Virus record (IMG/VR): IMGVR_UViG_2740892235_000017
Coordinates: 1-16,117 of that record
Source: a virus
Taxonomy: Duplodnaviria; Heunggongvirae; Uroviricota; Caudoviricetes
Strand: one strand, 5' to 3'
DNA length: 16,117 nucleotides
Positions 2,372-11,882 of the stretch are shown here, one piece after another. How positions within the stretch are numbered: the first letter of the stretch is position 1; each line of letters begins with the position of its first letter. The notes beneath the pieces were generated by a model. That model saw only the letters and a program-made list of their open reading frames with translations, was not told the DNA's origin and did no database searches. The position numbers and the translations under genes were made by a program.

Positions 2372-3421
2372 TTACCCGAGCACGCCAGTCGCAAAGGCGT
2401 GATCAAGAAAACGAAAAATTAACTCAATCTGAGAGCCGTACTTTTTCTCAAACTTCAGCGGGTCTGCATGAAGTTCGTTGTGGTGCTCCCGGCACAACGG
2501 TAGCGTGAAAATATCGTGGGCCTTTGTTCCCACTCCCCCCTGACCATGACCAATCAGGTGATGCGGATCGTCAGCTGGCTTACCACAACACGCACACGGC
2601 TGTGTCTTTACCCAGCGCGTGTATTTCTCATTAACCCAACGGCGACGTTTAGGCCGCCTCATGAACGATTCAGGAGACTCCGGATCAACGGCGATACTGA
2701 CAACCGTTTTTTTCTGTGGTGGATTTTGTTGCTGGTGGACGTGAAGTGGCAGCGCAATATTTTTTGTGCGCTGCTTCAGTATGCTGATGGCTGTCTGTTC
2801 TCCCGGTACGATGTCACTCTCACGGTATACGGAGCGGATTTTTTCCACTGGTAATCCCAGCGAACGACGCGCTACTGCCTCAGGTAGTGCATCCACCACC
2901 TGATTGCAGGCCGCCCACCAGGATAATTCGGCCAGCGATAACTCCCTCTCCTGCGTACCGCTTATTGCGTGACGGATGACATCAATCATCCAGGCAACCA
3001 GATTCTGCTGAGCAAGTTGATCGAGTGATTCTGATGTCTGGTCGCGCAGCTGGTTGTCACAGTGCCAGCACAACACCATCGCGCCGGTACCATAACGGTG
3101 AATGGCTGTTTCGCTGTGATGATAATCGCCGTGTGGCCACTGGCAGGATTTCACGTGACGTAATAACCAGTCAGACAGTGCACCTGCACCACCTGCTGCA
3201 CGAATAACCTGCTCATCGCTGAAAAATGGCAGTAATGTTTTATCCTCTGCCAGCGGCTGGCGAACGGCAGGAACGACTCCGGACGGCAGACCGCGCATGT
3301 TTTTCGGTTCCGGCTCCATCAATATTCTGCCGTTATGGAATGCTGACATTGATTCACGGCCCGGCTTAAGGAGCACCATCCCGAGTTCCGGTACCAGAAC
3401 AGGTCGAAGTAATACCCGCAC
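2372..3421 (-). CDS. DUF968-family nin-region protein (YdfU-like, 349 aa)
   Basis: 349-aa ORF with a Cys/His-rich C-terminal block (CACCGKPADDPHHLIGHGQGG...CREHHNELH). Length and position (between rusA/Q and a hok locus) match Qin YdfU as recalled. Confidence 0.55.
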   Translation of the reverse strand: MRVLLRPVLVPELGMVLLKPGRESMSAFHNGRILMEPEPKNMRGLPSGVVPAVRQPLAEDKTLLPFFSDEQVIRAAGGAGALSDWLLRHVKSCQWPHGDYHHSETAIHRYGTGAMVLCWHCDNQLRDQTSESLDQLAQQNLVAWMIDVIRHAISGTQERELSLAELSWWAACNQVVDALPEAVARRSLGLPVEKIRSVYRESDIVPGEQTAISILKQRTKNIALPLHVHQQQNPPQKKTVVSIAVDPESPESFMRRPKRRRWVNEKYTRWVKTQPCACCGKPADDPHHLIGHGQGGVGTKAHDIFTLPLCREHHNELHADPLKFEKKYGSQIELIFRFLDHAFATGVLG

Positions 3422-3422
3422 G

Positions 3423-3710
3423 TTACCTCCAGATGCGCTGCTGGAATGTGCGGGACGGACGCGGTGGGCGTTCGGAATAAGGGAGCCTGACGGAGATTAT
3501 CCAGTGACGACGATCGAAGCTGAGGGCTTTCTCAAACTCATATCCGCGCCTGCGGTAACACTGGATCAGCCATTCGGCCTGTTCTTCAGTGCATGGGGGA
3601 TGCTGGAACCAGTCGGTTTTAAATACGTGCGAACACCGCCCTTGCCTACTGGCAAGGGCGGCAGAATTGTGCAATCTGCTATCGTGCGCCATCGGGATCT
3701 CCGGTGGCAC
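3423..3710 (-). CDS. Hypothetical nin-region protein (95 aa)
   Basis: ORF whose stop abuts the start of the DUF968 gene; coding-like composition. No family recognised. Confidence 0.35.
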   Translation of the reverse strand: MPPEIPMAHDSRLHNSAALASRQGRCSHVFKTDWFQHPPCTEEQAEWLIQCYRRRGYEFEKALSFDRRHWIISVRLPYSERPPRPSRTFQQRIWR

Positions 3711-3745
3711 GGTGTTTCTCAGCGACGGTTCAAGTCAGCCTGATT

Positions 3746-3973
3746 TTATAGCTGCTTCTGAATATCATCAACAGGTAGTCCTGCCAACTCTCTTACCTCA
3801 GAAAGAAGAGAAAGGCTTACAACAACCTCATTACTTCGCATAACAAAACCACATTGAAAAGAACCATCACTGTTTCTGTAAACAACAACCGGGCGCGTGC
3901 TCTCATAAAACCCCGGGATCAAACTGGCTGGGATTTTCACAACACCTCCTGACGTAAAGGAAATGAAATGCAT
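3746..3973 (-). CDS. Hypothetical small protein (about 75 aa; possibly Rem-like by position)
   Basis: ORF 3746..4018 begins with GTG. Preferred start is the ATG at 3971..3973 (MHFISF...) with GAGAAG 5 nt upstream. Position between the DUF968 gene and the hok locus parallels rem in Qin. Confidence 0.35.
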   Translation of the reverse strand: MHFISFTSGGVVKIPASLIPGFYESTRPVVVYRNSDGSFQCGFVMRSNEVVVSLSLLSEVRELAGLPVDDIQKQL

Positions 3974-4152
3974 TATCGCTTCTCTCGGACTATAACCATG
4001 AAAAGAGACGCATTTCACTCAGTAAATCTGAGGATTTTATGCGCAAGAACAATGACTTTTTCTGTCTGCCGTTTATACAATCTGAATTACGTCTGTTTTT
4101 TGAACACCGATAAATCAGCAAGCATTCTCAAATAAAGATTGCCTCCATAGTC

Positions 4153-4173
4153 CACATAGTGTAACACTATGTG
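4153..4173. promoter_or_regulatory. Perfect 21-bp palindrome (candidate operator) upstream of the HigB-2-like/HTH pair
   Basis: CACATAGTGT-A-ACACTATGTG is a perfect 10-bp inverted repeat about a central A, directly followed by TATATAAAAT and the SD GAGGCAGG before the ATG at 4197. Confidence 0.5.
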
Positions 4174-4196
4174 TTATATAAAATGCAGAGGCAGGT

Positions 4197-4569
4197 ATGC
4201 GAATTTTCAAAATCGCCTGGTTTGAACGTTTCGCCCGAAAACATCGGATTTCCGATAAATCGCTGCGCAAAATCGTGGAGCAGGCCGATAAGGGGGATCA
4301 TATCCGCAAATTTGGGTAGTGGTGTCATTAAACAAAGATTAGCCCGAAGTGGTGGCGGAAAATCAGGCGGTTACCGGACAATAATTTTTTACCGCGTTGC
4401 AGAAAAAGCCTTTTTCATCTACGCATACGCAAAGAATGAACGAGAGAATATCACTGCTATAGAGGAAAATGCTTTTCGAAAAGCCGCTCCCCATGTCCTC
4501 AATCTTACTGATGAACAGCTGGCACAATTGATTCAACAAGGCCAGTTCACGGAGGTACCCAATGAGTAA
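4197..4569 (+). pseudogene. HigB-2-like (RelE/ParE superfamily) toxin, interrupted by a +1 frameshift in a G-run
   Basis: Frame A from ATG 4197 (good SD) reads MRIFKIAWFERFARKHRISDKSLRKIVEQADKGDHIRKFG then TAG at 4317..4319. Frame B continues ...GSGVIKQRLARSGGGKSGGYRTIIFYRVAEKAFFIYAYAKNERENIT to 4569. Removing one G from GGG at 4314..4316 joins them in frame. The joined product resembles Vibrio HigB-2 as recalled (GKRGGSRIIYYF...YGKNE). Confidence 0.5.
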
Positions 4570-4879
4570 AAATTACCGCAGTGATGCACTTGCATCTGTA
4601 CATGAAATGATGGAGTCACTCCATGATATCGGTGCAATCACAAAACAAACTATGCGCGAATTCGATGAAACTTGTCTTCAGCCTGCGCCGGTAATGTCTC
4701 CAGAAAGGATCCGTGCACTGCGAGAACGAGAGCATCTGTCTCAACCTGTTTTTGCCAGATACCTCAACGTCAGTAAAAACCTGATATCAGACTGGGAACG
4801 AGGAGTGAAACGCCCGGGAGGTGCAGCTCTTCGGCTTCTTTCAGTTGTCGAGAAAAACGGGATCCAGGTAATATCCTGA
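4562..4879 (+). CDS. HigA-like antitoxin / XRE-type HTH regulator (105 aa)
   Basis: ATG at 4562 preceded by GGAGGT; overlaps the toxin stop by 8 nt. C-terminal HTH-like segment LSQPVFARYLNVSKNLISDWERGVKRPGGAALRLL. Toxin-first gene order is typical of higBA. Confidence 0.6.
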   Translation: MSKNYRSDALASVHEMMESLHDIGAITKQTMREFDETCLQPAPVMSPERIRALREREHLSQPVFARYLNVSKNLISDWERGVKRPGGAALRLLSVVEKNGIQVIS

Positions 4880-4981
4880 TATTCTAATACAACAAAACCC
4901 GCCGAAGCAGGTTAAGTGCGGGTGCGTTGAGGATGCCTGACACATCAGAGGTGGCGAGGGATTTCTCCCTCGCCAGGTCTC

Positions 4982-5137
4982 TTACTCCTCAGGTTCGTAA
5001 GCTGTGAAGACAGCGACCTCCGTCTGGCCGGTTCGGATTCGTACCTCGCAGAGGTCTTTCCTCGTTACCAGTGCCGTCATTATGACGGTTAAACAGATGA
5101 CAATCAGGGCGATTAACATCGCCTTTTGCTGCTTCAT
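4982..5137 (-). CDS. hokD: Hok/Gef-family type I toxin (HokD/RelF-like, 51 aa)
   Basis: MKQQKAMLIALIVICLTVIMTALVTRKDLCEVRIRTGQTEVAVFTAYEPEE closely matches recalled E. coli HokD (RelF). SD GGAGAAG lies upstream of the ATG at 5135..5137. The ORF-track 70-aa form is an in-frame upstream extension. Confidence 0.85.
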   Translation of the reverse strand: MKQQKAMLIALIVICLTVIMTALVTRKDLCEVRIRTGQTEVAVFTAYEPEE

Positions 5138-5400
5138 AGCCTGCTTCTCCTTGCCTTTCGGCACGTAAGAGGCTAACCTACATGTGCAAAGCATGAAATT
5201 GGCCTCAGATTAATGTTAAGCGTCCTGCAAGACGCGTAATGTTAACTGGGGCTTTTCTCTGTCTGCCTTACGGCGGCATGCCCGAGGCAGACAGCCTCAA
5301 GCACCCGCAGCAATTCTACTTAACTCTTCTTTCCCCGCAAATCATTTTATCCCCGATGGTAATGTTCTCCCGATATGGGAATTCCCATATCAAGGTTAAC
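5138..5400 (-). promoter_or_regulatory. hok leader region (mok/sok-type regulation expected); candidate antisense Sok RNA on the plus strand
   Basis: About 260 nt of untranslated leader upstream of hok, containing an inverted repeat TCTGTCTGCC...GGCAGACAG (about 5257..5292). Hok loci are known to carry a structured leader and an antisense RNA; exact ends cannot be set here. Confidence 0.35.
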
Positions 5401-5408
5401 TCAATCGG

Positions 5409-5960
5409 TTAAAGCTCCATTAATTTTCCGGCCAGTTCATCTCGTGGCATTACCAGCCATCCGCGCGATTTAAGCAAAGCCAGGGCTTCTTCAACCGTCA
5501 CCAGCTGGCCTGGCGCATAACTTCGGATGAAGGCGGTTTTATCGTCACGGATCGCCAGGTGAAAATCGATATTCATTTTTCCCATAGCCCGCTCTTTCTC
5601 GTACTGGTTGAAGTAACTGTCTTCGAGTTTTTCGAATACTTCCCACGCCTGATCGGTTTCGAGCATTTTTGCATGACGGGCTGCTCCGCGTTCTGTCCAG
5701 AGGATGAGAGTGCGGGTTTTGGGAGAAATTTTCACCTCATTTTGCGACTCGTTTAAAACTAGTCGCAAATTTTTGAGCTCATCACCAACAGCTTTAAAGA
5801 AGTGTTTTCCCTCAATAAATCGAGATTTATTTTCATGGTGATTCTGCTGTATACGGATTGCTTCTGTTCCGTAAAGGCGGGCGAGTAACTCAGTTGTGAT
5901 TACAGGAATCTGGTTATAAGTGACAGGGGAAAGGTTTTTGACAGTAACTTGAGTCGTCAT
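5409..5960 (-). CDS. ORF6N-domain (antirepressor-like) phage protein
   Basis: 183-aa ORF; N-terminal region YNQIPVITTELLARLYGTEAIRIQQNHHENKSRFIEGKHFF matches the recalled ORF6N signature (...RFIEGKHYF). Confidence 0.55.
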   Translation of the reverse strand: MTTQVTVKNLSPVTYNQIPVITTELLARLYGTEAIRIQQNHHENKSRFIEGKHFFKAVGDELKNLRLVLNESQNEVKISPKTRTLILWTERGAARHAKMLETDQAWEVFEKLEDSYFNQYEKERAMGKMNIDFHLAIRDDKTAFIRSYAPGQLVTVEEALALLKSRGWLVMPRDELAGKLMEL

Positions 5961-6121
5961 GATAACGCCCTCTGGTTGATGAATTTAACTATCACCACCT
6001 TCAGGTCTCAATCATCAGGTGGCGAGACGTACAGGGTTGAGACTACCGGATCAACCAACCGGCCAGCCTTTCGGCTGCCCCATACGCCTCACCATAATTC
6101 AGATGTGCGTGCGCATACGAC

Positions 6122-6145
6122 AATAAAAAACACGCTCGCGGCGTG
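6122..6145 (-). terminator. Rho-independent terminator on minus strand
   Basis: Minus-strand hairpin CACGC-cgcga-GCGTG (plus 6131..6145) followed by TTTTTT (plus A-run 6125..6130). Confidence 0.45.
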
Positions 6146-6301
6146 TGTCTGTCGCGGTTGAATATCCGGGGTCTCAATCCCGACGGTCAACTCGACCGTG
6201 CGGTGAATATAGCCCCGGATTAGTAATTACGTCAACCCCAGCGGCAAATCGAATAAACCACCAGCGCTACCGCCATTGCAACTCCTGCCGTTACGAATGC
6301 C

Positions 6302-10662: not shown

Positions 10663-10688
10663 AAAAACCACCTTCGGGTGGTTTTTTT
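10663..10688 (+). terminator. Rho-independent terminator after the repressor-TA operon
   Basis: AACCACC-ttcg-GGTGGTT hairpin followed by TTTTTTT (10682..10688). Confidence 0.7.
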
Positions 10689-11072: not shown

Positions 11073-11324
11073 TTAGTACCAGTAAAAACAGGTTGCCACT
11101 GGTTAATTTACCCTGAAAAGTCAGGGCATAACACGAAAGCGCACGGCGAAGTTCGTATATCTGTACGGCGTCGTTAAATTTTCTTCGACCGTGCACTTCC
11201 GGTTGTGGCAATCCGCGAAATGGCGCGGCGGTAAGTATGGCTGGGGTTTCCTCCATTGCTCCAGAAAATGCACCGGGTTGTCAGGTTGACCATACGCTTA
11301 AGTGACAGCCCCGCCACAATACCC

Positions 11325-11380
11325 ATGTGTAGTCTTTGGTGGCATCAGTTCTACTCCGTGACTGCTCTGCCACCCTTTTT
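11325..11380 (+). ncRNA. dicF: DicF-like small RNA with intrinsic terminator
   Basis: Segment ...GGTGGCATCAGTTCTACTCCGTGACTGCTCTGCCACCCTTTTT closely resembles recalled E. coli DicF. Terminator stem GGTGGCA/TGCCACC (11338..11344 and 11368..11374) plus T-run 11376..11380. Lies immediately upstream of dicB as in Qin. The 5' end is approximate. Confidence 0.5.
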
Positions 11381-11872: not shown

Positions 11873-11882
11873 NNNNNNNNNN
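11873..11882. other. Assembly gap (10 N)
   Basis: Run of 10 n characters. Confidence 1.

Follow-up and report, generated by a model that had tools for sequence, protein, structure and literature searches.

The window, i.e. the whole stretch of 16,117 nucleotides analysed here, carries a toxin-antitoxin pair of a known family in which, very probably, the inherited insertion of a single G has killed a HigB-2-family prophage toxin and left the antitoxin gene unchanged; this would be an ordinary case of toxin-gene decay. The course of events that we propose starts from a bicistronic, toxin-first type II cassette that would have been carried as a moron between DUF968/ydfU and hokD in a Qin-like E. 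coli prophage. One G would have been inserted in a GGGG run (now at positions 4292-4296), shifting the frame past codon 33 so that translation runs into the stop codon at 4317-4319. The catalytic core would thereby be left untranslated from the toxin start, and the toxin would be dead. After this presumably single origin the allele would have split into at least three sub-haplotypes, and that of the window would have gained an N6I substitution as well as a G-to-A change that perfects an upstream palindrome. The antitoxin, having a ribosome-binding site of its own, would still be made, and by analogy with V. cholerae HigA-2 it is predicted to act both as repressor and as neutraliser.

The toxin reading frame starts at ATG 4197, which has GAGGCAGGT upstream, and ends at the TAG at 4317-4319, the stop given in the earlier note. 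This 5' part of the gene (4197..4319, plus strand) encodes 40 amino acids, MRIFKIAWFERFARKHRISDKSLRKIVEQADKG-DHIRKFG, i.e. 33 native codons followed by 7 out-of-frame codons (DHIRKFG) and the stop. The remainder of the gene (4297..4569, plus strand) corresponds to codons 34-123 of the intact protein and stands in the +1 frame with respect to the ATG. That frame is open from 4171 to the TAA at 4567-4569, and its translation includes ...IISANLGSGVIKQRLARSGGGKSGGYRTIIFYRVAEKAFFIYAYAKNE... and ...SGGGKSGGYRTIIFYRVAEKAFFIYAYAKNE.... A single uninterrupted toxin frame of ~120-125 aa is absent, since the frame is broken past codon 33. In the Pfam search both unrepaired pieces matched PF06296, the first frame (frame A) with 37.1 bits at profile positions 1-35 and the downstream frame (frame B) with 113.7 bits at positions 31-120, so the N-terminus encoded in frame A is part of the family. 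The GGGKSGGYR...YAKNE core sits within the 4297..4569 remainder. According to a structure model, the remaining strands and this conserved core are encoded 3' of the frameshift, and strand 1 and helices 1-2 are encoded 5' of it. Judged from the sequence, the toxin gene at this locus is a pseudogene of the PF06296 family and not a functional member. We infer that the toxin is dead, as the catalytic core lies wholly downstream and would be out of reach of translation that begins at ATG 4197.

The position of the extra G differs from the one first suggested. It had been placed in the GGG at 4314-4316, where the deletion of one G was thought to restore a full toxin. When the window is aligned with the intact DNA of O26:H11 11368 and O157:H7 PV15-279, there is a single gap, and it falls in the G run at 4292-4296 (plus strand), which reads GGGGG in the window and GGGG in the intact alleles, where it spans codons K32-G33-I34. 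The intact genes have the same GGG at 4314-4316 and the same TAG triplet after it, but in the other frame, ..TTG GGT AGT... Any one-base deletion across 4240-4319 reopens the toxin frame, so that frame restoration by itself cannot place the lesion. The resulting proteins are nevertheless different: intact proteins read ADKG-IISANLG-SGVIK, and a repair at 4314-4316 gives ADKG-DHIRKFG-SGVIK, i.e. a protein with 7 wrong residues. Against PF06296 the intact allele scores 161.3 bits and the toxin repaired in the G run 158.6 bits (cut-off 27; profile positions 1-120); the repair at 4314-4316 reaches 148.3 bits, about 10 bits below the G-run repair. The first reading missed the site by some 20 nt and 7 residues. 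This shows that choosing any homopolymer that restores the frame can misplace a frameshift, and here the comparison with intact homologues alone found the true site.

The closest intact relative is the allele of O157:H7, O26:H11 and O145 strains, which encodes toxin WP_001217944.1 and antitoxin WP_000042395.1. Over 801 bp it is 99.4-99.5% identical to the window at the DNA level and has the same flanks (DUF968 ... hokD). The antitoxin protein is identical in the two, and the differences are the extra G at 4292-4296, N6I and the G-to-A change at 4158. The search of a collection of 5,426 complete E. coli genomes found the 801-bp region in 215 of them. Many of these copies are 1 base shorter and have a single 372-bp toxin CDS, e.g. 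those of O26:H11 11368 and O157:H7 PV15-279. Of the complete genomes, 51 contain an exact 75-mer with five Gs (G5) and 3 more have it with one additional SNP, although several of the 51 are re-sequenced or closely related strains and the figure overstates the number of independent observations; the corresponding 74-mer with four Gs (G4) is found in 113.

The earlier note offered two readings of the broken frame, a toxin-dead relic or a homopolymer sequencing error, and of these the relic stands. For an error of sequencing or assembly, with GGGG as the true sequence and an intact toxin, speak the homopolymer run in which the lesion falls and the fact that the window comes from a scaffolded assembly (10 Ns at 11873-11882). 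Against it, the same G5 allele recurs in the 51 (+3) complete genomes, which come from many sources and countries. Among 14 sampled loci, moreover, all 9 with G5 have an A at position 4702, and the 4 closely related G4 loci all have a G. This SNP is 410 bp away from the G run, and a homopolymer error would not be expected to co-segregate with it. The two markers of the window sub-haplotype, 4158A and 4213T, occur solely together with G5, and across the 801 bp the window haplotype is identical to that of 11 complete genomes. Independent assemblies of public sequencing runs likewise yielded proteins of the frame-B reading frame (P0010-P0012). An error in the reads or the assembly is left with hardly any probability. 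The comparison of genomes indicates that the G5 frameshift is a real, inherited mutation. The sampled G5 copies form three nested sub-haplotypes. The insertion has most probably a single origin, with a later split into at least three such lineages.

The coexistence of the two run lengths raises the question of phase variation, in which the G run would expand and contract by slipped-strand mispairing and thereby toggle the toxin. Both G4 and G5 exist in the species, and strain ST130 has one copy of each, but these two copies sit at separate loci, with about 175 kb between them. In the 14 sampled loci the run length shows no homoplasy with respect to the flanking SNPs, and every sampled G5 locus has 4702A and belongs to one of the nested sub-haplotypes. 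The tract is, in addition, merely 4-5 G long, whereas known contingency loci have runs that are well longer than this. In our estimate a switch of this kind has only a very slight probability.

The toxin remnant of the window has decayed further than the frameshift itself. The comparison with homologues and with the sampled loci revealed an A-to-T substitution at 4213 (plus strand) that gives N6I. N6 is invariant in 46 homologues, and the 4213T base is restricted to the sub-haplotype of the window and RM10466. In terms of the PF06296 profile, the repaired protein scores 161.3 bits with N6 versus 158.6 with I6. Another G5 allele has Q29K. The correct repair of the G run still leaves N6I in the protein, and the repair first suggested would have carried it unnoticed. 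Other positions that are invariant in the 46 homologues are K45, G52, G54, S56, G58, K79 and N84, and R60 is conserved in at least 90% of them.

These substitutions also bear on the question whether the ribosome might rescue the toxin. A leaky or programmed +1 slippage would make the locus an attenuated yet active toxin-antitoxin system: the tRNA-Gly on GGG 4293-4295 would re-pair with GGG 4294-4296, and the product would have the wild-type sequence apart from N6I. Low-level slippage of ribosomes on runs of identical bases is well established. A +1 shift at AAG_GGG_GAT does restore the native K-G-I-I-S, and the +1 frame is open from 4171 on. On the other hand, no stimulator is seen, i.e. there is no SD-like element upstream, and the A-site codon, GAT, is a common one and neither rare nor a stop. 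A change at an invariant residue, together with Q29K in the sister allele, would be unexpected if the product were under selection. In addition, all other homologues are in-frame, and the shift is confined to one allele lineage of E. coli. Rescue by slippage thus appears very unlikely to us, and we continue with the inherited loss of the toxin as the preferred reading.

It is worthwhile to compare this reading with the current annotation. In RefSeq the 40-aa piece from ATG 4197 is a CDS (WP_024200932.1), and the remainder appears in one of two forms, as an 85-aa CDS that starts at TTG 4312 or as a 132-aa open reading frame that starts at GTG 4171. PGAP labels the pieces as ordinary CDSs, never as a pseudogene, and calls the 40-aa and the 85-aa products "RelE/ParE family toxin". 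One could take this literally and regard the pieces as functional, either as toxins of 40 and 85 aa or as a 132-aa protein, and both the 85-aa and the 132-aa products would indeed hold the conserved core. Inspection by eye, however, showed no Shine-Dalgarno sequence ahead of TTG 4312, GTG 4171 or ATG 4183, and GTG 4171 falls inside the palindrome. The downstream products would be without strand 1 and helices 1-2 (elements E2-6, H7-15 and H20-31 of the model). In the 132-aa frame residues 1-39 are out-of-frame and have no Pfam match, the match beginning at residue 40. It is highly improbable, in our judgement, that the pieces work as they are annotated. As RefSeq labels the dead gene as one or more toxins and never as a pseudogene, censuses of toxin-antitoxin systems in Shiga-toxin-producing E. 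coli will over-count functional toxins. The locus does not change the current view of toxin-antitoxin biology, and its value is mainly practical.

The description of the toxin as a HigB-2-like protein of the RelE/ParE type agrees with the family assignment, given that the repaired frame belongs to PF06296. This was the sole Pfam match of the toxin at E <= 0.01; PF05016, the family of the K-12 RelE toxin (PMC11980606), was not matched. Toxins of PF06296 have variously been named HigB2 or RelE, and they are described as ribosome-dependent mRNases encoded in toxin-first order (PMC11980606). NCBIfam has no model specific to this toxin, and PADLOC returned no match for it and hence no defence-system assignment. 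A literature search with the RefSeq accessions and with the terms HigB2, prophage and frameshift found no account of this frameshifted allele.

Bicistronic relE-yiaG modules of the PF_RelE family were described previously, including one in E. coli VREC0535 (SQP90372.1/SQP90371.1) with a -8 overlap (Gerdes 2025, PMC11980606). The pair of the window resembles the VREC0535 module in the Pfam family of the toxin, in the toxin-first order and in the 8-nt overlap. The antitoxins are about 87% identical (estimated by eye) and the toxin cores 89-92% (P0006/P0007). The two differ in that the VREC0535 example is intact and the window toxin is frameshifted. The 48-aa "disordered N-terminal extension" reported for VREC0535 results from the choice of a start codon further upstream, from which translation would run through the operator region; MRIFKN is the beginning in the other toxin annotations that we examined.

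The best matches among PDB sequences are V. cholerae HigB-2 for the toxin and HigA-2 for the antitoxin (PDB 5JA8, 5JA9, 5JAA; Hadzi et al. 2017, PMC5416850). This system shares the Pfam family of the toxin, as the HigB-2 fragment taken from the PDB alignment matches PF06296 with 30 bits, and it shares the toxin-first order. The likeness of the toxins is distant (E 5.5e-4, about 23% identity). The arginine of the GGSR motif in HigB-2 aligns with R60 of GGYR in the window toxin, and since Arg64 is catalytic in HigB-2 (PMC5416850), we infer that R60 is its counterpart. The E. coli toxins have an additional C-terminal helical segment with respect to HigB-2, as seen in the structure model. The V. 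cholerae toxin is not frameshifted and its host element is the superintegron, whereas the window copy is frameshifted and resides on a lambdoid prophage. "HigB-2-like" is a fair label, and the system is a published relE-yiaG module, so its novelty is low.

The second gene of the pair (4562..4879, plus strand) encodes a 105-aa HTH antitoxin of the HigA-2/YiaG type, as judged by Pfam and the PDB match. Its ATG at 4562 overlaps the toxin stop (TAA 4567-4569) by 8 nt, and it has its own GGAGG at 4551-4555, 6 nt ahead of the ATG. The Pfam matches are HTH_3 (32.3 bits) and HTH_31 (31.4 bits), and in the PDB sequence search residues 45-99 align to residues 39-93 of HigA-2 (5JAA) with E 6.7e-8, so that the HTH partner of the earlier note can be called HigA-2-like. 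The HTH domain is preceded by a conserved N-terminal segment of 44 residues. This is the layout of HigA-2, in which a C-terminal HTH follows an N-terminal segment of roughly 45 residues. In HigA-2 the N-terminal segment is a disordered, toxin-neutralising domain and the C-terminal HTH dimer binds the operator (PMC5416850). By this analogy the product of the window antitoxin gene is probably still a dimeric HTH repressor with the palindrome as its binding site, and it can probably neutralise homologous toxins by means of its N-terminal segment.

The antitoxin had been described as intact, which the comparison bears out: it is the same protein as in intact alleles, and WP_000042395.1 is found in the sampled loci with the frameshift as well as in the sampled intact ones that are closely related to them. 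JNEC-KY176, a more divergent intact allele, has antitoxin WP_032210935.1. Between the G4 and G5 alleles the antitoxin genes differ by one synonymous change in 318 bp, so there is no statistical power for detecting selection on the antitoxin since the split. Against divergent alleles the dN/dS is 0.01-0.05. We considered this low value as a possible sign of selection after inactivation and rejected it, as it cannot be dated with respect to the toxin loss and mostly reflects the time during which the toxin was intact. The data are compatible both with an antitoxin that is kept by selection and with one that has merely not decayed.

The region upstream of the toxin contains a perfect palindrome of 21 bp (10+1+10; CACATAGTGT-A-ACACTATGTG) at 4153..4173, 24 nt upstream of the toxin ATG. 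Perfect palindromes with arms of at least 10 bp number 5 in the window versus 0.13 expected from mononucleotide shuffles. From its position and by analogy we presume that the palindrome serves the HigA2-type antitoxin as operator. An allele that is 83% identical overall retains the right half together with the bases next to it (TGTAACACTATGTGTTAT), as would fit an operator. The palindrome had been regarded as intact, and it is indeed perfect in the window. This perfection is a derived feature: position 4158 is A in the window and G in all the intact-toxin alleles sampled, whose left arm therefore has one mismatch. The perfect version (4158A) was found in 35 complete genomes, and 35/35 are frameshifted. 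The last step thus took place after the death of the toxin; it may reflect either chance hitch-hiking or an adjustment to autoregulation without toxin.

As for promoters, the sole consensus match on the plus strand upstream of the toxin is a candidate sigma-70 promoter at 4052..4081 (ATGACT-18 nt-TACAAT). The divergent allele L007 has the corresponding two hexamers at the same distance (ATGACT-18-TATACT). The consensus scan found nothing overlapping the palindrome. A weaker candidate, an extended -10 element (TGT-TATATA, 4172-4180, plus strand), was read by eye directly after the palindrome.

Loss of the toxin is not limited to the G5 allele. A second, divergent group of alleles (P0008-type) is present in 38 complete genomes, and by match length about four of these copies are full length. 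In the lineage of the O104:H4 outbreak the toxin gene has two 1-nt deletions, in FORC_069 and its relatives it has one 1-nt deletion, and in NMBU-W12E19 a truncated toxin gene adjoins an IS66-family element. These sequences indicate that the second group lost the toxin independently of the G5 allele. Its antitoxin, WP_000042397.1, is intact in all copies examined. In comparison with the window antitoxin its gene has 24 synonymous differences and 1 non-synonymous difference (dN/dS 0.01). Taken over complete E. coli genomes, roughly 88 of ~207 copies (about 40%) appear toxin-dead, and no antitoxin-dead copy was seen among the loci that were inspected. The phage collection contained one related copy, on PhiR12_3 from ECOR13, with 79% identity. 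With its two frameshifts, the copy in the O104:H4 outbreak lineage is also open to the over-counting of toxins mentioned above.

One may speculate about why the antitoxin persists. An orphan antitoxin might be maintained because it shields the lysogen from the intact homologous toxin that related lambdoid prophages or incoming phages carry, which would amount to anti-addiction or cross-immunity. In that case the G-to-A change at 4158 would have adapted the operator to autoregulation in which the toxin no longer acts as co-repressor. If so, the recurrent loss of the toxin at homopolymers in two allele groups, with the antitoxin unchanged, would be the signature of this process. The chromosomal ccd of Erwinia chrysanthemi is an example of the orphan antitoxins that toxin decay leaves behind and of "anti-addiction" antitoxins. 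The present locus is similar in that a toxin-inactivated copy keeps its intact cognate antitoxin, and the second allele group shows the same outcome. The idea is a tentative one and, on the whole, we think it unlikely to be right. The ~40% of copies with a dead toxin and an intact antitoxin nevertheless offer a clean natural data set on selection of orphan antitoxins.

The pair is located in a Qin-like lambdoid prophage. The window contains genes for Q, RusA and DUF968/ydfU, the toxin-antitoxin pair, hokD, an ORF6N protein, replication genes and YdaT, and also cro/cI-like genes, DicF and dicB. The match to the ydfU region of K-12 Qin extends over 2372-3732, ydfU/DUF968 being 82% identical, and window positions 4894-5151 are 97.7% identical to K-12 hokD. 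Hence the backbone is the same as that of K-12 Qin (ydfU, hokD, dicA/dicC, DicF, dicB), and in both prophages a type II pair adjoins hokD. The pairs themselves are different. K-12 relBE is antitoxin-first with a RelB-type antitoxin; the pair of the window is toxin-first with an XRE HTH antitoxin. K-12 relBE, moreover, shares the strand of hokD and is situated 5' of it, replacing the sok/mok region, whereas the pair of the window is 3' of hokD and convergent with it, and the hok locus keeps sok.

The convergent arrangement with hok was noted correctly, then, hokD being on the minus strand at 4982-5137. The accompanying statement that the pair sits where relBE lies in Qin does not hold, as together with the unassigned ORF at 3746-4018 the pair fills the slot of rem in K-12. 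The suggestion of a hotspot for the exchange of toxin-antitoxin systems is supported in part. Toxin-antitoxin cassettes do collect in this region: in K-12 relBE flanks hokD on the opposite side, and other strains have a Doc-family toxin gene, with a small ORF ahead of it, between the pair and hokD.

The hok neighbour is a complete hok/sok type I locus (4982..5306, minus strand), with the hokD CDS at 4982-5137 (Pfam HOK_GEF, 82.3 bits) and the sok element at 5132-5306 (Rfam RF01794, 117 bits). Between the two convergent units there is a GC-rich hairpin (4896..4913, minus strand) which, with a T-run on the minus strand, reads as the terminator of hok.

Loss of the toxin is also found in the divergent allele group of the pair, where it arose independently of the extra G. 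In E. coli O104:H4 2011C-3493, of the outbreak lineage, the divergent toxin copy (locus L006, 3040-3410) carries two independent 1-nt deletions, and in its relatives (loci L018 and L019) the toxin gene either has a single 1-nt deletion or is truncated next to an IS66-family element. The O104:H4 copy and all the relatives examined retain an intact antitoxin. Judged by match length, the full-length toxin of this allele type is kept in only about 4 of the 38 complete genomes.

The way in which the toxin gene is annotated in databases deserves a comment. The frameshifted toxin (positions 8098-8470 of the homologous locus L001, corresponding to window 4197-4569, and 8072-8470 of L002, corresponding to window 4171-4569) appears in RefSeq/PGAP in two forms, either two ordinary CDS of 40 aa (WP_024200932.1) and 85 aa (WP_024173694.1) or a single 132-aa ORF in the +1 frame relative to the toxin ATG (WP_236940275.1), and among the loci examined none had it flagged as a pseudogene. 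Another point concerns the start codon. A 2025 survey of relE-yiaG modules (PMC11980606) modelled a 171-aa E. coli "RelE with an intrinsically disordered N-terminal extension", given as SQP90372.1 in its supplementary table. As represented by this entry, the protein is the product of the same toxin gene, called from an in-frame start further upstream (compared with 2950-3000 of L007, a divergent allele), and its 48 additional residues are translated promoter/operator DNA; the RefSeq start for the same allele is MRIFKN. In the case of SQP90372.1, at the least, the reported N-terminal extension probably reflects a miscalled start codon.

The neighbourhood of the pair contains further toxin-antitoxin genes. 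A complete type I hok/sok locus lies on the minus strand at window 4982-5306 (Hok, 82 bits; Rfam sok, 117 bits), and its hokD portion is 97.7% identical to hokD of the K-12 Qin prophage. In K-12, relBE replaces the sok/mok region, therefore the window represents the un-rearranged form of the hok locus. Several strains carry a gene for a death-on-curing (Doc) family toxin between the pair and hokD, preceded by a small unnamed ORF (L006 3770-4453; L012 930-1000; L018 921-1041), so that three toxin-antitoxin cassettes are adjacent in the same prophage region. In strain ST130 (NZ_CP043478.1) the pair is present on two prophages, separated by about 175 kb (2,006,449-2,006,820 and about 2,181,300-2,182,100); one copy is intact (G4) and the other is frameshifted (G5). 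This strain offers a natural setting to test cross-neutralisation by the orphan antitoxin.

Other regulatory elements were also detected in the window. The gene of an ORF6N-domain protein (5409-5960) is immediately preceded by C4 antisense RNA (6015-6099) and isrK (6125-6199), all on the minus strand, and the region 5409-6199 resembles the antirepressor modules under antisense control of P1/P7, here within a lambdoid prophage. The DicF sRNA (11324-11375, plus strand, 61 bits) is upstream of dicB, the same arrangement as in K-12 Qin. Besides the palindrome at 4153-4173, there are four other perfect palindromes whose arms are 10 bp or longer (3637-3660, 4952-4975, 5372-5391 and 10663-10686), i.e. 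5 observed vs 0.13 expected. The one at 4952-4975 is the hok 3' hairpin, and that at 10663-10686 is an A5...T5 hairpin resembling a bidirectional terminator. The 20-bp palindrome GATATGGGAATTCCCATATC (5372-5391), without a spacer and located between the ORF6N start and sok, looks like another protein-binding site. Finally, ten consecutive Ns at 11873-11882 mark a scaffold gap, therefore the assembly from which the window derives is scaffolded and not finished.
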